Assembly: GCF_051097895.1 (NCBI RefSeq)
Contig: NZ_CP142525.1
Location: 1,620,001-1,652,000 of the forward strand
Direction: 5' to 3'
Source: Psychrobacter sp. HD31
GTDB taxonomy: Bacteria > Pseudomonadota > Gammaproteobacteria > Pseudomonadales > Moraxellaceae
DNA: 32,000 nt
Shown here: piece by piece, positions 2,651-32,000 of the stretch
How positions within the stretch are numbered: the first letter of the stretch is position 1
Layout: the number at the start of each line of letters is the position of its first letter
Translations under genes and position numbers: made by a program
Notes under the pieces: generated by a model
Database searches by the model: none
Told to the model about the DNA's origin: nothing
What the model saw: the letters and a program-made list of their open reading frames with translations, nothing else

Positions 2651-3199
2651 ATGACAGATATGAACAGCACAAATGAACCTGATGATACCTTGGGTACACA
2701 AACAGGGGACATCTCATATAAAACCACCCATACAGCGGTACGTAAGGCACGCCGATTTGCCGTGCAAGGTATTTATGAGTGGTTAATGACTGATCGACGA
2801 TTTGAACAAAATGGACAAAATGAATGGCAAGCTAATTCACCGCATGATATTGCGGCAAGAACACGGGCTAACAATGCCATGCATACCGTACATCTTGGAT
2901 ATTATCATGAAATGATGCGTGATATACCCGAGCAAGTTGAAGAGCTTGATAACCTGATTGCTCAGCATGTTGATAGAGAAATGCATAAAATTGATAAAAT
3001 TGAGCATGCCATTTTGTTAATCGGTGCTTATGAGCTAAAAAACAGCCTGCATATACCATACAAAGTAGTATTAGATGAAGCAATGAAGCTAAATACTCAC
3101 TTTGGGGCAACCGATGCTTTTAAACTGATTAATGCCGTGTTAGATAAATTAGCAAAACAGTTTAGAGTGGCAGAAGTTGAAGCGGATAAACCGCAATAG
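2651..3199 (+). CDS. nusB: transcription antitermination factor NusB
   Basis: [11 protein letters not shown] and [10 protein letters not shown] motifs plus ribH-nusB synteny. Has an N-terminal extension of about 25 aa. Confidence 0.9.
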
Positions 3200-19873: not shown

Positions 19874-20518
19874 TCACACCGCCTTATTTTCTAGGGCTTG
19901 GGCATGCACAAGTGCCAAGGCAAGTTGTTTTGGTTGTGGGTTGTTTGCTACGTTAAAGCCTAATTTTTTCATGGTGCGGATATAGGCGGTTACGGTACTG
20001 CTAGAGCGGTTAATCAACTTACCAATCTCTGTACTGGTTAGTTGCAGTTGTTTGTAGCGGATAATGTCCGCCCATTGGGGGCGTGATTTTAACAGCTCTT
20101 GTTGTAGTGCCTCGTTTTGCTGGGTTAGTTTTAGCACTTGGATAATAGGCTGGGTTTGTTGTTTTTCGCAAGCGATAAAGTAACGGCGTGCTTGCCTGCC
20201 TTTGTCGTTACGTTCTACCATGGACAGTTCTTTTGCCATGTCTAGGGATAGGTGGTATTCAGTCTTAGGACGACCGCCAAATAAGCCTTTAGAGGTTTTC
20301 CCCAAAATTGGGGAAAACTCGACACCCTCAATAAAATCGTAGTCGGCGATACGTTGCTTAATCCAAGTTGCAAAGTCTTTGCCCACGCCTAAAAACTCAT
20401 GTAAATCACGAGCATTGACTAATGGCTGGGGTTGGTTGTTAAGCGTACCTGTAAAGGTAGGGATAAGTTGGGTTGCCTGTGATGGGCGGATGTGTTGCAT
20501 TACGGTTGATTGTGACAT
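19874..20518 (-). CDS. AntA/AntB-type phage antirepressor-like protein with C-terminal HTH
   Basis: NARDLHEFLGVGKDFATWIKQRI...GGRPKTEYHLSLDMAKELSMVERNDKGRQARRYFI matches the AntA N-terminal domain pattern. C-terminal LTSTEIGKLINRSSSTVTAYIRTMKKLGF looks like an HTH. AAGGAG RBS. Confidence 0.8.
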   Translation of the reverse strand: MSQSTVMQHIRPSQATQLIPTFTGTLNNQPQPLVNARDLHEFLGVGKDFATWIKQRIADYDFIEGVEFSPILGKTSKGLFGGRPKTEYHLSLDMAKELSMVERNDKGRQARRYFIACEKQQTQPIIQVLKLTQQNEALQQELLKSRPQWADIIRYKQLQLTSTEIGKLINRSSSTVTAYIRTMKKLGFNVANNPQPKQLALALVHAQALENKAV

Positions 20519-20520
20519 GA

Positions 20521-20648
20521 GTATGTCTCCTTTGTTTACTTTCTAAGGTAAAACCCATAAATGATGGGTGTCGGGAGGTTAGAAAACTGACAAAGGACAG
20601 CCGAAGTTATTTCCCCATATGGGGTCTTGTATTCCTTGCCCTCCCGAC
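20521..20648 (-). promoter_or_regulatory. structured 5' leader RNA of the antirepressor-like gene
   Basis: 9-bp long-range stem (20570..20578 with 20640..20648) encloses a CCCCATATGGGG hairpin (20613..20624). A second hairpin, ACCCAT/ATGGGT (20553..20569), is followed by UUU, then AAGGAG and the ATG. Confidence 0.5.
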
Positions 20649-28549: not shown

Positions 28550-29008
28550 TTAAGTTAAATTACCCATTTGCGTACGGGTAAAAAGTCTGTCTTCGCTAAT
28601 AATTTCAGCATGGTCGTTTTGCTGTGTGCCGCTTTCATCGGTATTAACCAATTCATCAGCATGTATGCCTAAACTGGTGTCACCTTTAGCAAAGCGTTCT
28701 AGGTGTTTAATAGCATCGTTATAAAGCTTGTCTGTTGCTTTATCTTCATTGCCTGTATTGCCCAGTTTTACCTTTAGGTAGTACACAGCTAAATCTATGG
28801 TTAATGTTTTAACCAGCCCTGGTACAGTTGCCAATGGCAAGTTAGCCCGTTGTCCAACATAGCTGTCAATAATGCCGGTGGCATCGGCAATGCTTGCCTC
28901 TGCCACTTGCATATTAATGCTATCCGCTCTTTGGTTTGGGTTAGTAAGCTCTATAATTGCTCGCTCACCCAACCGTAGGGTTAAGTCGGTAACGGTTGCA
29001 TAGCTCAT
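28550..29008 (-). CDS. DUF1320 / Mu gp36-like head-tail connector protein
   Basis: MSYATVTDLTLRLGERAIIELTN N-terminus and ...IDSYVGQRANLPL... pattern typical of DUF1320. Start at 29008 forms TAATG with the upstream stop. Confidence 0.75.
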   Translation of the reverse strand: MSYATVTDLTLRLGERAIIELTNPNQRADSINMQVAEASIADATGIIDSYVGQRANLPLATVPGLVKTLTIDLAVYYLKVKLGNTGNEDKATDKLYNDAIKHLERFAKGDTSLGIHADELVNTDESGTQQNDHAEIISEDRLFTRTQMGNLT

Positions 29009-29568
29009 TAGGCATTTGCCTCTGCAACTAAAACGTTCCACGCAGCATCACGGTATTTTGCACTAACTTCTAGCCCTTGCTCTTTAAGAGATTTGACAGT
29101 TGGTTTGACTGCAGATAGGTCTAGGTTTAATGCACGCATGGCTTCTACAATTGCTGTTAAATCGTTAGGTGCAGATGTTTTTTGTTCATTAGAGCCTTTA
29201 TCAGCTGGGCTTTGGTTTTCATCACCCGCATTTTGTTCATCACCTGCAGGTTTAGCAGGGTCTTGGTTACTGTCCAATTTGTTGCTTGGAGCAATTGGTG
29301 TGGTGGATTGACTATTTGCAGGGTTTGTATCGCCATCACCAGCTTGTAAGCTGTCGCCTGTGTTATCGCTCGTATCATCCTGCTTAATGTCATCATCCGC
29401 TCCCTGTGAAATCACTTTTACTTGCAAATAGCTGTCAGCTTCTAACCGCTCAAGCTCGCTTGGTGTGACTTCTACTTGTTTTGGGGTTTTAGAAAATTGT
29501 ATGCCGTTTCTAAAACGAGTAATACAACCTACGGCTGTAACAGCGACTAATGTTTTATAGATACTCAT
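29008..29568 (-). CDS. hypothetical head-module protein with an acidic low-complexity centre
   Basis: Directly downstream of the major capsid gene. Short structured N-terminal domain, D/N/Q/G-rich linker, helical C-terminal end. Confidence 0.55.
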   Translation of the reverse strand: MSIYKTLVAVTAVGCITRFRNGIQFSKTPKQVEVTPSELERLEADSYLQVKVISQGADDDIKQDDTSDNTGDSLQAGDGDTNPANSQSTTPIAPSNKLDSNQDPAKPAGDEQNAGDENQSPADKGSNEQKTSAPNDLTAIVEAMRALNLDLSAVKPTVKSLKEQGLEVSAKYRDAAWNVLVAEANA

Positions 29569-29604
29569 GGTTATGTCCTTTAATCTAATTGAATATTTGG
29601 TTGG

Positions 29605-29636
29605 TCAATACAACCAAGTAATCTTGGCTGTATTGA
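29605..29636 (-). other. strong stem-loop just after the major capsid gene
   Basis: 14-bp stem (13 of 14 paired), TCAATACAACCAAG / CTTGGCTGTATTGA, with a 4-nt loop. No U-run on the minus strand. Confidence 0.6.
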
Positions 29637-29660
29637 TTGTTAAGTGTGTTTTGGTTGCAG

Positions 29661-30578
29661 TTACTGCACAACACGTTGTGTTGACATCACATCAACTACG
29701 TCTTTATTGATGTTTGTCGCACCGTTAGCATCTTTATCAGCTTTTACAAGTTCTCTTGCTTGGGCACGCAATGTCGGCGGCACAACCAATAGCGTTGGGC
29801 TAATATTTAACTCACGCCCACCGTCTGCTGTTTGTGATTGCATTTTTGCAATGGCAGCATTTAGGTTTTCAGCAGTTAATGGTTTGTTTGACTTATAAGC
29901 CATTTGCCAAAATCCATAGCCAGAATTTTGGCGTACTCGAGTACCCCAACGGAATACATCTTTCATAAAGACAGATTCATCATCTAGTTTGGTCATCGCA
30001 GTCAAAACTAGTTTTGTACGCGATTGAAAAATAAATGGTTTTAATGGTTTTTTGGTATCTAATAAATACCAGAATGGTTCGGTGCTATTAGCATCATAGT
30101 CAAAGTTAGAAACAACAGTTACTGCACCAGTGCCATCATGATTTTCGTAAACAGGGTGATCGGTATCAAAAAAGTTTTGCCCGTCATAACATAAGCTAGT
30201 TTCACCTTCTTTCATTGTCTGGAAAACCAGTTTGTCAGGGTGTTGCTGACCTCTAGCTCCCAAGCTTTCTGCTAGTGGTGCTAAGAAGCCACAGTCGTCA
30301 TCTTCAATATCGACTGCATCAACACTAATAGAGCCTTCAAACTTTTTGTTTTTGATTGAATATGAGTGGGTTTTTATATCTTTAATTGTACGTTCACCAA
30401 TCCATTCAACCATATCTGGCATTTCACCCAACCAACCATACGTGTTTGAGCCTTTACTTGATGGGATTGTTGTTGCTAACTTTTGGTATTCTGATTCAAC
30501 AGAATCAATCCCCTTGTTAAAGCTTTTTTTAACTGCCGTATCTAGCAGTTTAAGTGTTTGCGTGTTTACTAAAGCCAT
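29661..30578 (-). CDS. major capsid protein, Mu gpT family
   Basis: ...YGWLGEMPDMVEWIGERTIKDI..HSYSIKNKKFEGSISVDAVDIEDDD... matches the Mu-like gpT pattern. Confidence 0.9.
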   Translation of the reverse strand: MALVNTQTLKLLDTAVKKSFNKGIDSVESEYQKLATTIPSSKGSNTYGWLGEMPDMVEWIGERTIKDIKTHSYSIKNKKFEGSISVDAVDIEDDDCGFLAPLAESLGARGQQHPDKLVFQTMKEGETSLCYDGQNFFDTDHPVYENHDGTGAVTVVSNFDYDANSTEPFWYLLDTKKPLKPFIFQSRTKLVLTAMTKLDDESVFMKDVFRWGTRVRQNSGYGFWQMAYKSNKPLTAENLNAAIAKMQSQTADGGRELNISPTLLVVPPTLRAQARELVKADKDANGATNINKDVVDVMSTQRVVQ

Positions 30579-30644
30579 TGTCTAGTTTCCTTATATAAAT
30601 TTATCGTATAAACGCTTTGGTGCTTATTAGCTAGTTATTACCAA

Positions 30645-31115
30645 CTAAACCACAATACCCATGCTTTCTAACTTTTGAATATCTTGTGCATTCAATTCAG
30701 CATCACCTTCTTTTTTTGGCGGCTTATCTTGCAAGTTACTGTCACCAATGATTGCCGCTTTATTATCAGCAAACTTGGTAAAGTCAGCTAAGCCTTGCTC
30801 GGTCGCACATTGAGCCGTGTAGTAGTCTTTATCGGCTGGCGCAATTTTTTTGTTGTCGATTGCTTGGTTGATAGCAACTTCTACTGCTTCGTTATGCTTA
30901 GCGTCTGCCATTTCTTGCAGTTTTGCGTTGGCAGCATTAAGCTCGGTAACCGTTTGGTCATGGGTTGCTTTGGGTACAAAGCTATTTAGGTCAGGTTGCT
31001 GTTGTTGCATTGCATTTGTTTCTGTCGCTGTTTTTAATACTTGGATAGCATTAAGAGCGGTTGCTTGGTCAGCATCTGGTGGTAGACCGAGTGCTTTTAG
31101 TAAGGCATCTAACAT
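30645..31115 (-). CDS. possible nested scaffold protein (Mu gpZ analogue) from an internal start
   Basis: Internal in-frame ATG 31115, preceded by AAGGA, immediately after the (QT)5 linker. Confidence 0.3.
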   Translation of the reverse strand: MLDALLKALGLPPDADQATALNAIQVLKTATETNAMQQQQPDLNSFVPKATHDQTVTELNAANAKLQEMADAKHNEAVEVAINQAIDNKKIAPADKDYYTAQCATEQGLADFTKFADNKAAIIGDSNLQDKPPKKEGDAELNAQDIQKLESMGIVV

Positions 31116-31643
31116 GGTGTTATCCTTTTGTTTAGTTTGGGTTTGGGTTTGGGTTTGGGTTTGGGGTTCTTGCTGGTTGCCTTGTTTTTTATTTAAGGCA
31201 GGTACATCTAAATTAGGTTTGTTGGTTAAGCCAACGCTAGAAAAGCTATGCACTTGTCCTGTTTTTTTGTTGATATTTAGCGCAGGGCTATAAAACTTAA
31301 AATCTTTTTCATTGATTGCTTTAGCACCGGATTTTGTCGGGTCCACGCGAGCATAAATAAAGCCATCTGTGATTTTCAATTCTTCAAACCAGCCAGACGC
31401 TCTAGTATCATTTGTTAGCTCACTTGCATGGTCTATATCAAGCAAAAAAGGGAGTTGTGTGTTATCAATAACAGCTTGTGCATCATCATTTTGCCAGCTT
31501 CTGCCGTCTTTGCCTTCTACCTTGCCGACAGGTATAAGCGGCCACCACAGGTCATCAACAACCGGTGGTAATTTTGTGCAAAGCGCTGTAACTAATTCAG
31601 TTTTTGTTTGAGCGTTTAAGTCTGTACGTAGTTGTTTTTTCAT
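30645..31643 (-). CDS. prohead protease/scaffold, Mu gpI family
   Basis: DGRSWQNDDA...LLDIDHAS...SGWFEEL...FYSPAL pattern of Mu-like gpI, with a coiled-coil C-terminal half. Start at MKKQL (31643) preferred over 31673 because of the conserved leader element. Confidence 0.85.
   Translation of the reverse strand: MKKQLRTDLNAQTKTELVTALCTKLPPVVDDLWWPLIPVGKVEGKDGRSWQNDDAQAVIDNTQLPFLLDIDHASELTNDTRASGWFEELKITDGFIYARVDPTKSGAKAINEKDFKFYSPALNINKKTGQVHSFSSVGLTNKPNLDVPALNKKQGNQQEPQTQTQTQTQTKQKDNTMLDALLKALGLPPDADQATALNAIQVLKTATETNAMQQQQPDLNSFVPKATHDQTVTELNAANAKLQEMADAKHNEAVEVAINQAIDNKKIAPADKDYYTAQCATEQGLADFTKFADNKAAIIGDSNLQDKPPKKEGDAELNAQDIQKLESMGIVV
31135..31164 (-). repeat. (GTTTGG)5 hexanucleotide microsatellite encoding (QT)5
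   Basis: Five perfect tandem units at the protease/scaffold domain boundary. Confidence 0.95.
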
Positions 31644-31702
31644 ATTGCTTAGGTTAGCAATACAACGTAACATGCTGTTATTAAAGTCGTTTACTGATTT
31701 TT
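31641..31702 (-). promoter_or_regulatory. conserved late-operon leader element, copy B (upstream of the protease gene)
   Basis: Contains the 22-mer 31674..31695, identical to 25528..25549. Colinear with 19554..19614 down to the ATG. Confidence 0.6.
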
Positions 31703-31704
31703 AT

Positions 31705-31733
31705 TTGATTGGAAGGGCAAGCAGGGGTATAAT
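31705..31733 (+). promoter_or_regulatory. sigma70 promoter TTGATT-N17-TATAAT on the plus strand (antisense to the phage operon)
   Basis: Perfect -10 hexamer and 17-bp spacer. Predicted +1 at 31740. Confidence 0.55.
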
Positions 31734-31739
31734 GATATT

Positions 31740-31819
31740 GCGGTGGCGGTTACCAACTGGAAAGGGAGTTGCTTTTTAAAAGGCATCGTGATCCTGTTCG
31801 AATCAGGCGAACCACCGCA
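31740..31819 (+). ncRNA. tRNA-like small RNA candidate (non-canonical cloverleaf)
   Basis: 7-bp closing stem GCGGTGG/CCACCGC. Three internal hairpins, one being a T-arm look-alike CCTG-TTCGAAT-CAGG (GTTCGAATC at 31796..31804). Begins at the predicted +1 of the upstream promoter. Confidence 0.45.
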
Positions 31820-32000
31820 TCAGTTTATTGAACCATAAAGCACTTCATATTTACCTAGACTTGTTAGGTTTGTTATTATTCCTCCTGTGGTTACTATATT
31901 TAGCTTAACCCGCTCTTTTTTGCCATTTACTTTTATTTTTGTCTCATAATCTAATCTAACTAGTACCTTGCCACTTGGTGTGTTGTACACAAAAATCAAA
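31820..32000 (-). CDS. 3' end of an unidentified phage ORF running off the window
   Basis: Hand translation of the minus strand gives an open frame ...LIFVYNTPSGKVLVRLDYETKIKVNGKKERVKLNIVTTGGIITNLTSLGKYEVLYGSIN, ending at TGA 31822..31820. It is too short in-window for the ORF track. Confidence 0.4.
   Translation of the reverse strand, partial: LIFVYNTPSGKVLVRLDYETKIKVNGKKERVKLNIVTTGGIITNLTSLGKYEVLYGSIN

Follow-up and report, generated by a model that had tools for sequence, protein, structure and literature searches.

Does the gap between two head genes of a Mu-like prophage contain an RNA gene that is read against them, and if so, what kind of RNA does it encode? The question concerns the plus strand at the end of a 32,000-nucleotide (nt) stretch of DNA from Psychrobacter sp. 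HD31 (contig NZ_CP142525.1, positions 1,620,001 to 1,652,000). This stretch is referred to below as the window; it represents the late region of a Mu-like siphophage prophage. A reading made from the sequence alone had proposed that a small tRNA-like RNA gene is located here, antisense to the late operon. Comparison with relatives makes it very likely that positions 31739-31819 are the gene for a stable, independently transcribed tRNA-like RNA with a predicted transcript of about 81 nt. With similarly high confidence, its predicted fold consists of a closing stem (P1), a homologue of the D arm, a variable hairpin (P2), a 5-nt linker, a T arm, and a 4-nt insert. The function can be named more tentatively: a non-decoding tRNA mimic that acts in trans and whose elbow would be read by shape is given slightly less than an even chance.

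The window sequence by itself does not settle the matter. Folded as plus-strand RNA, the element is not better than shuffled sequences (z = -0.90 for 91 nt and -1.36 for 81 nt); the minus strand gives z = -2.42. The promoter in front of the element has a score of 10/12, the best one in positions 29000-32000, and the number of promoter-like sites in this interval is not above chance (7 found versus 7.2 expected from shuffles). The core of P1 is formed by GCGGTGG (31740-31746) and CCACCGC (31812-31818), and the pair U31739-A31819 extends the stem to 8 base pairs (bp). P2 comprises 8 bp, including one U.U mismatch and one U.G pair, and is closed by a 4-nt loop. Promoter, closing stem, T arm, hairpin sequences, and the neighbouring stop codon (31820-31822) were all located in the sequence exactly where the sequence-only reading had placed them. 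Judged from the single sequence, the feature is nevertheless not demonstrably beyond chance, and the comparative data are decisive.

Relatives were collected by pattern searches and by means of a neighbouring gene. A pattern consisting of two conserved blocks of the window matched 30 viral contigs. A looser version, ACTGGAAAGG-N12-42-GTTCGAATC, matched at least 120 viral contigs, with about 70 distinct element sequences among the matches listed; among its matches were also a few genuine tRNAs with the D arm GCC-AACUGGAAA-GGC. Furthermore, 124 loci were retrieved with an alignment of 40 gpI proteins. The element is convincing in only three of them (L002, L037, and L038) and about 120 are without a match, and the family is therefore clade-specific. 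Locus searches with a single gpI protein yielded no relatives in genomes or viral contigs, and an exact 26-mer from the window had no match in viral contigs. Among deposited phages, BLAST found nothing that matches the window region. With the main form of the element as query, Pasteurella phage AFS-2018a was the sole match among phages, and no plasmid was found. In this phage, the only deposited one that carries the element, it is unannotated and lies between a 'head morphogenesis protein' and a 'virion morphogenesis protein'.

Almost all of 127 loci have a Mu F-like gene of roughly 420 amino acids on the other strand, and the 3' strand of P1 is placed within about -8 to +4 nt relative to its stop codon. 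The next late gene begins about 40 nt past the -35 hexamer and points away from the element. Its identity varies: it is gpG-like, a small accessory gene (moron), or, as in the window, gpI. By exact-protein look-ups of the adjacent F proteins, the hosts Pasteurella multocida, P. canis, Haemophilus influenzae, Glaesserella parasuis, Necropsobacter, Exercitatus, [Mannheimia] succiniciproducens, Gallibacterium, Mannheimia pernigra, and Kingella oralis were identified; Acinetobacter and Psychrobacter are known as hosts from the gpI-retrieved loci. There is little doubt that the family is spread over Mu-like (pro)phages of Pasteurellaceae, Moraxellaceae, and Kingella, and that it is convergent with the Mu F-like head gene, which it meets right after the stop codon.

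The main alignment, A3, contains 42 sequences. In its consensus, the 5' strand of P1 is followed by GG-GUUUCC-UACU-GGAAAGG-UU, the P2 hairpin, AUUAU, CCUG-UUCGAAU-CAGG, CAAA, and the 3' strand of P1; the window is a minor variant with GUUACCAACUGGAAAGGG, a GUGAU linker, and CGAA. Some 45 nt do not vary, namely the D-arm-like block GGUU(U/A)CC(U/A)ACUGGAAAGG and AU-CCUG-UUCGAAU-CAGG-C. The sequence of P1 is hypervariable across the family. Four to five standard pair types, with many double changes, occur at each of its seven core positions (alignment columns 5-11 paired with 83-89). The covariation score of P1 is 0.437, compared to 0.146 ± 0.011 in shuffles (0 of 500 reach it) and at most 0.134 in controls in which the 3' partner was slid by one to three columns. 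The fraction of paired P1 cells is 85.5% versus at most 46% in the slid versions, and both P1 and the T stem were recovered independently by RNAalifold. A mere intergenic hairpin lacking conservation and covariation, which the sequence-only reading had named as the outcome that would undo its proposal, is not what these values describe. The Psychrobacter locus L002, which aligns with the window across the entire intergenic region, illustrates the pattern. Its closing stem has undergone a compensatory change from GCGGUGG/CCACCGC to GCGAUGG/CCAUCGC and its middle hairpin is swapped for a different one; GGUUACCAACUGGAAAGGG and AUCCUGUUCGAAUCAGGC are unaltered, and a promoter-like TTGCTT-N18-TATACT is kept.

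The inner helices behave similarly. The family comprises 42 distinct P2 sequences, and all fold into a hairpin, commonly with one internal mismatch. The loops have a length of 3-7 nt and include GAAA, GCAA, GUAA, UUCG, and AUAA; the window has UUAA. Covariation is also seen at the base of P2 (GC 19, AU 14, CG 4, GU 4). The T arm is invariant within the main family; between subfamilies, its stem shows compensatory changes (CCUG/CAGG, CGGG/CCCG, CAGG/CCUG, UGGG/CCCA, GCUG/CGGC). The T stem has 4 bp in the window and 4-5 bp in subfamily B. This Kingella-type subfamily reads GCAAGGG-UAG-UUUCCAACUGGUAAC-GGUU-P2-AUUAU-GCAGG-UUCGAAU-CCUGC-CG-CCCUUGC, and subfamily C (Acinetobacter bouvetii, A. tandoii) has the T arm GCUG-UGCAAGU-CGGC and the D loop CCAAAUAG. 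The 5' junction is GGG in most relatives and UAG in subfamilies B and C, its final G being kept in all subfamilies. The insert between T stem and acceptor strand comprises 4 nt in the window and the main family, and is CG or ACG in subfamilies B and C.

For the D-like block, which is mostly invariant in the 42 aligned members, two registers were weighed: a 5-bp hairpin UUNCC/GGAAA and a 3-bp U/A stem with an open CCNACUGG loop. Subfamily B displays the canonical U8-A9 spacing before a D stem of the form G/UUU...AAA/C with an open CCAACUGG loop. This spacing favours the tRNA-like register, in which the GG of the loop would be free to meet the T loop. In the Acinetobacter variant (L037/L038:2153-2239 (-); L295:1329-1415 (+)), the D-loop GG is changed to AG together with a change of the T loop from UUCGAAU to UGCAAGU. 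This co-change in a single lineage is a hint of a putative D-loop/T-loop contact equivalent to G18-U55. On account of the spacing in subfamily B and the Acinetobacter variant, the open-loop register is preferred for the predicted structure. Among the three inner hairpins of the sequence-only reading, the T arm stood, and so did GCUUU/AAGGC, which is part of P2, a hairpin longer than had been drawn. The remaining helix, CAACU/AGUUG, had to be given up: the complementarity is present in the window and absent in relatives. AGUUG belongs to the 5' strand of P2 (GUUGCUUU, pairing with AAGGCAUC), and the region of this first inner hairpin is the D-arm homologue, with a UU(A)/AAA stem and a CCAACUGG loop.

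Two covariance models were used to score the window. R1 is based on the family seed including the window, and R2 on 25 main-form sequences only, with the window type left out and filters off. R1 matches the window only at 31736-31822 (+), with 79.3 bits; genuine tRNAs score 15-22 bits with this model. R2 yields the same interval with 65.4 bits (E 8e-16), and the runner-up in the 32 kb reaches 8.6 bits. The window element has the variable closing stem, the conserved blocks, P2, the 5-nt linker with AU at its end, the T arm, the C-R-A-A sequence, the placement after F, and the promoter of its own by which the family was defined. The proposal of an opposite-strand, tRNA-like but non-canonical small RNA gene between late head genes is thus corroborated by the conservation of promoter, structure, and orientation in at least 120 contigs and by the leave-out model.

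Which strand is transcribed? A promoter of the type TTGNNN-N16-18-TANNNT is present at a conserved position in 63 of 68 distinct upstream sequences of relatives, which substantiates the claim that the element has a near-consensus promoter. Among these 63, the -35 hexamer is TTGATT in 42, the spacer has 17 nt in 58, and the -10 hexamer is TATAGT in 51. In most of the distinct upstream sequences, about 4-7 nt separate the end of the -10 hexamer from P1, which places the predicted +1 on the first bases of this stem. A comparison of both strands in 70 variants assigned the lower folding energy to the element strand (plus in the window) in 48 of them, with a mean difference of 1.7 kcal/mol in its favour. 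GNRA and cUUCGg tetraloops as well as the T-loop consensus occur solely on this strand, and its P1 contains more G.U pairs than A.C mismatches. Several loci contain tandem arrays of two to three different units that are 8-12 nt apart and share a single promoter. In L131, L170, and L174, a P1 of 12-13 bp is followed by a U tract. A convincing terminator after P1 was found neither in the window nor in two relatives scanned downstream. Seven lines (energy, loops, G.U pairs, promoter, arrays, U tracts, and the locus L165 described below) point to the strand antisense to the late operon as the one that would be transcribed.

Some loci deserve a description of their own. The U tract of L131, L170, and L174 is the reverse complement of the final Lys-Lys codons of the convergent F gene (which ends in WKKP and the stop codon); the same bases thus encode the end of F when read from one strand and serve as a terminator tail when read from the other. 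At loci of the Kingella type (arrays in L260 and L263-L265; also L131:5645-5733 (-) and L147:586-671 (+)), the arrays consist of two to three different tRNA-like units, one of which belongs to subfamily B. Another one is of a third type, with about 110 nt and the T arm GUGGG-UUCAAGU-CCCAC. The promoter of these arrays is TTGTTT-N18-TAAAAT, and a canonical terminator, AAAGCCCGATTAATTCGGGCTTTTT, is located at their end. At L165:3993-4073 (-), the element and a TATAAT box are present with no Mu F gene adjoining; an unrelated open reading frame (ORF) precedes them, and the element is co-oriented with downstream Mor-like, gpI-like, and capsid-like genes. L165 may be a phage satellite or a rearranged element that carries the RNA module. 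Since L165 contains promoter and element in a different context and orientation, the element behaves like a module in its own right. Another kind of cloverleaf, with a length of about 125 nt, occupies the same F/gpI junction on the same strand in L045:2755-2895 (-) and also in L046-L049 (IMG/VR; gpI about 54% identical). Its promoter, TTGCTT-N18-TATACT, is the same as in L002. It comprises the acceptor UAUGCUG/CAGUAUA, a D-like arm, a 57-nt hairpin that replaces the anticodon arm, and the T arm GUUGG-UUCAAAU-CCAAC. The fold has z = -2.35, and the family model gives no match to it. The F/gpI junction thus seems to host interchangeable tRNA-like cassettes.

Is the element simply a tRNA, or a member of another known RNA class? 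ARAGORN called 0 tRNA or transfer-messenger RNA (tmRNA) genes in the window and 25 relatives. With Rfam 15, no family was found for the window element at the gathering score or at E<=10, and two relatives gave nothing for the element and no tRNA or tmRNA match; that tRNA finders do not call the element agrees with its earlier description as non-canonical. Two features are those of a tRNA: an acceptor-type stem formed by the 5' and 3' ends (P1), and a T arm with the 7-nt loop U-U-C-R-A-N-Y. For the D arm with its GG, a sequence homologue, UUA-CCAACUGG-AAA, is present, which is invariant in the main family, so that its pairing is putative. An anticodon arm with a 5-bp stem and a 7-nt loop is absent and P2, of variable length, is found instead. 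The T stem is not continuous with the 3' strand of the acceptor, CGAA or CAAA being inserted. No CCA is encoded, and the base after P1 is variable.

Three further candidates were rejected. A tmRNA is contradicted by the lack of an ARAGORN or Rfam match, and 81 nt leave no room for a tag ORF. Membership in the YrlA group, which the sequence-only reading had suggested as one option, is disfavoured by the hypervariable closing helix and by the absence of an adjacent rsr gene: the neighbours in the 127 loci are Mu F and gpI, gpG, or morons. A hammerhead-like CUGAUG...GAAA core, noticed by eye on the minus strand, is off consensus, and Rfam agrees.

Table 1. Positions of the RNA element, its promoter, and the adjoining prophage genes in the window.
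Feature	Position	Strand	Remark
-35 hexamer TTGATT of the RNA's own sigma-70-type promoter	31705-31710	+	promoter scan
-10 hexamer TATAAT	31728-31733	+	17-nt spacer after -35; predicted +1 at about 31739-31741
P1 5' strand UGCGGUGG, acceptor-like closing stem	31739-31746	+	partner is 31812-31819
5' junction CGG	31747-31749	+	from alignments
D-arm homologue UUA-CCAACUGG-AAA-GGGA	31750-31767	+	short U/A stem, GG dinucleotide in the loop
P2 variable hairpin GUUGCUUU-UUAA-AAGGCAUC	31768-31787	+	occupies the position of the anticodon arm
5-nt linker GUGAU	31788-31792	+	equivalent of the tRNA variable loop; AUUAU in most relatives
T arm CCUG-UUCGAAU-CAGG	31793-31807	+	invariant in the main family
3' junction CGAA	31808-31811	+	CAAA in most relatives; insert between T stem and acceptor strand, absent from canonical tRNA
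P1 3' strand CCACCGCA	31812-31819	+	abuts the stop codon of the Mu F-like gene
Major head protein gene gpT	29661-30578	-	PF10124, E 1e-110
Mu gpI-like protease/scaffold gene	30645-31643	-	Pfam PF10123, E 1.2e-39; divergent from the RNA promoter
Mu F-like head morphogenesis gene, C-terminal end	31820-32000	-	stop codon TGA at 31820-31822; runs off the window

What could such an RNA do? Because the invariant positions build the tRNA elbow (D-loop GG and T loop) and the junction, while the identity-bearing helices vary or are replaced, recognition by shape is the simplest assumption. The RNA would then serve in trans as the ligand of some protein or ribonucleoprotein by which the elbow or the body of tRNAs is recognised. 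Candidate partners are host enzymes that process or modify tRNAs, a tRNA-directed toxin, or a defence nuclease, and the RNA might act as a decoy or sponge, as a substrate of a tRNA enzyme, or as substrate and decoy at once. Expression would probably occur in the lysogen or early in infection, since the promoter is independent of a phage activator and directed against late transcription. A 5' triphosphate end that is base-paired in P1 and a tRNA-like trimming of the 3' end may confer stability. A more far-reaching version is doubtful, albeit worth stating: Mu-like temperate phages of naturally competent Gram-negative bacteria may carry a dedicated class of anticodon-less tRNA mimics, sometimes as arrays of different units, which would be expressed from the prophage and would be RNA decoys with an anti-defence or lysogenic conversion function. 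By its invariant elbow, such a decoy would bind a tRNA-targeting factor of the host or of a rival phage, for example RNase P, a toxin that modifies tRNAs, or a nuclease that cuts the anticodon or the acceptor.

Several points weigh against the trans-acting mimic. Transcript, ends, and abundance are predicted from sequence, and the proposed mechanism of a decoy or mimic is based on which positions are conserved, its partners being candidates. Most members, including that of the window, have no recognisable terminator after P1. Their primary transcript may thus run antisense into F, as would befit an antisense function. A decoy that acts in trans does not account for the strictness with which the element abuts the F stop codon. 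The insert between T stem and acceptor may block enzymes that measure the acceptor/T-arm stack, and the D-arm register as well as the D-loop/T-loop contact are putative, one Acinetobacter co-change being the only hint.

These points have to be set against the merits of the alternatives. An antisense regulator that acts in cis, or a transcriptional interference device whose constitutive promoter fires head-on into the late operon, is the main rival and is unlikely, although the geometry is compatible with it: convergence and abutment to the F stop are kept in almost all of the 127 loci, the promoter is back-to-back with the next late gene, and a terminator after P1 was detected neither in the window nor in the scanned main-family loci. 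Such a transcript would be complementary to the late mRNA between F and G/I and, where P1 lacks a terminator, also to F at its 3' end. Leaky expression of late genes would be silenced in the lysogen, or cleavage by RNase III would be triggered, as by lambda OOP RNA acting on cII; the fold would mainly stabilise the 5' end or signal processing. However, about 45 nt that are invariant in phages with different flanking genes are needless for a purely antisense role. Members with P1 and a U tract and the terminator-ended arrays stop before F, tandem units with the same core and different stems look like separately folded products, and the L165 element is co-oriented with its neighbouring genes and lacks F. 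If the functional strand were that of the late mRNA, the element would close the portal-F transcription unit, be it as a structured 3' end, as a terminator, or as a processing site, and would protect it from 3' exonucleases. The position at the end of F, the better z-score of the minus strand in the window (-2.42), and the U-rich runs that flank the long P1 of the Kingella type on both sides speak for this idea, as does the boundary of a late transcription unit that Mu has near G/I. It is quite improbable, given that the element strand is the more stable one (48 of 70 variants; mean difference 1.7 kcal/mol), that tetraloops of the GNRA and UUCG type and the T-loop consensus are confined to the plus strand, and that G.U pairs would turn into A.C mismatches. 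Moreover, the conserved promoter at a fixed spacing from P1 would have no role, and a U tract on the sense side is missing in the window and the main family.

The remaining alternatives take the tRNA likeness more literally or dispense with an RNA. A chargeable adaptor, which would be trimmed, supplied with CCA, and aminoacylated by way of identity elements in the acceptor stem in order to donate an amino acid outside the ribosome or to sequester a synthetase or EF-Tu, is very improbable. The acceptor-like stem of 7-8 bp, the elbow, and the T arm suit this role, as does G.U as the third pair of P1 in a few members (L125a, L145a, GCGGUGG/CCACUGC), but a hypervariable P1 offers no conserved set of synthetase identity elements. 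In addition, CCA is not encoded, the base after P1 varies, and an insert of 2-4 nt breaks the continuity of acceptor and T stem. The strong gyrase site of Mu maps near genes G and I in the centre of the genome (PMC10052514), and the element is located at the equivalent F/G/I junction. It is nevertheless highly improbable that the conserved entity is DNA, be it such a central gyrase site of Mu-like genomes or a cruciform: compensatory changes maintain three helices; stable RNA tetraloops, terminators, and a promoter dedicated to the element are what characterises an RNA gene; and most gpI-retrieved Mu-like loci are without the element (3 of 124 convincing). A phage tRNA gene that is decaying and has no present function, another option of the sequence-only reading, would explain the clear resemblance to tRNA and the missing anticodon loop. 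This idea is scarcely credible in view of a core that is identical over many phages from three bacterial families, and of covarying stems, a conserved promoter, diverged subfamilies, and arrays. A very recent clonal spread is contradicted by the diversity of P1, P2, and the flanking genes. The trans-acting, non-decoding tRNA mimic is therefore retained as our tentative reading.

The prophage around the element contains, downstream of the genes listed in Table 1, a Mu gp36-like gene and a lambda-type tape-measure gene. For gpI, an alternative start is possible at 31673; the form with 332 amino acids is the one in the protein collection. The closest gpI relatives are only about 57% identical, with Psychrobacter proteins among them. 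The end of the F-like gene product is 42% identical to the last 65 residues of ORF23, the 'head morphogenesis protein' of Pasteurella phage AFS-2018a. Exact-sequence look-ups of the window proteins matched no record, and no Shine-Dalgarno sequence is evident before either candidate start of gpI. Upstream of gpI, a block AAAATCAGTAAAC(G/C)ACTTTAATAAC is conserved in the window (31644-31700) and in L002 and L045-L049 (about 2940-3000). It is followed by an inverted repeat, ATTGCT-N6-AGCAAT, which ends at the gpI start codon and is conserved in the window and the nearest relatives. Block and repeat may represent the late (Mor/C-dependent) promoter and the leader of the gpI transcription unit. A second structured RNA of this prophage was detected in the tail region: the Rfam family sRNA-Xcc1 (RF02221) has a full-length match at 20562-20648 (-) with 65.8 bits (gathering score 53, E 6e-10), on the late-gene strand and just upstream of an AntA-like antirepressor ORF (19874-20518).

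The element family appears to be undescribed. There is no Rfam model for it, it is unannotated in the sole deposited phage that carries it, and literature searches on tRNA-like RNAs in Mu-like prophages, on phage anti-defence RNAs, and on small RNAs of Pasteurellaceae yielded no description of the element. It is abundant (at least 120 viral contigs), its core is extremely conserved, and its predicted transcription unit is clear. Prophages with members of the family occur in Haemophilus, Pasteurella, Glaesserella, Mannheimia, Gallibacterium, Kingella, Acinetobacter, and Psychrobacter. Phage tRNAs are known to repair or bypass the action of anticodon nucleases, PARIS, and retron effectors. If the RNA binds an enzyme or toxin that recognises tRNAs, an RNA decoy would be added to this conflict of phages and hosts over tRNAs. 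If it serves the control of late genes instead, transposable phages would have a structured antisense element of a new kind.

How does the family compare with systems that are already known? It belongs neither to the YrlA group nor to the T4 species 1 and 2 RNAs, the mascRNA, or the vtRNAs, and it shares traits with each of them. YrlA and other bacterial Y-RNA-like RNAs reportedly contain a tRNA-like module. Like the element, they are non-decoding, have a conserved part that mimics the acceptor/D/T elbow of tRNA, possess a shortened anticodon arm, and are presumably read by tRNA enzymes. In contrast to the hypervariable closing helix of the element, the ends of YrlA form a conserved helix that binds Ro (Rsr), and the RNA is encoded beside rsr. 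The stable RNAs 'species 1' and 'species 2' from the tRNA cluster of phage T4 are likewise small, phage-encoded, and partially tRNA-like in fold; they occur alongside tRNA-type units, and their function is not established. They are larger, stem from a lytic myovirus, and lie inside a genuine tRNA operon, the likeness being one by description. Lambda OOP, a short antisense RNA convergent with the 3' end of cII, resembles the element as a short RNA of a temperate phage that has a constitutive promoter, is convergent with a phage gene, and touches its 3' end. OOP acts by complementarity and has its own terminator inside cII, whereas the conserved tRNA-like fold of the element sits outside the gene. 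The tRNA-like non-coding mascRNA and the vtRNAs of MHV68, which belong to eukaryotes and their viruses, have a tRNA shape without decoding use and are processed by tRNA enzymes; they differ in their eukaryotic hosts and their dependence on Pol III or RNase P/Z, and have no homology to the element. With canonical and phage tRNAs (RF00005), finally, the element shares the end-closing stem of 7-8 bp, the D loop AACUGGAAA of genuine phage tRNAs, a 5-nt equivalent of the variable loop, the UUCGAAU T loop, and the occurrence in tandem arrays behind one promoter. In contrast to a tRNA, it contains a freely varying hairpin without an anticodon loop, the insert of 2-4 nt between T stem and acceptor, and additional nucleotides in the 5' junction, and it has no CCA. 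Mimicry of tRNAs by non-coding RNAs is already known, and an anticodon-less family in Mu-like phages appears to be new; it would be a clean example of a tRNA gene that has turned into a non-decoding RNA and has retained the elbow alone.

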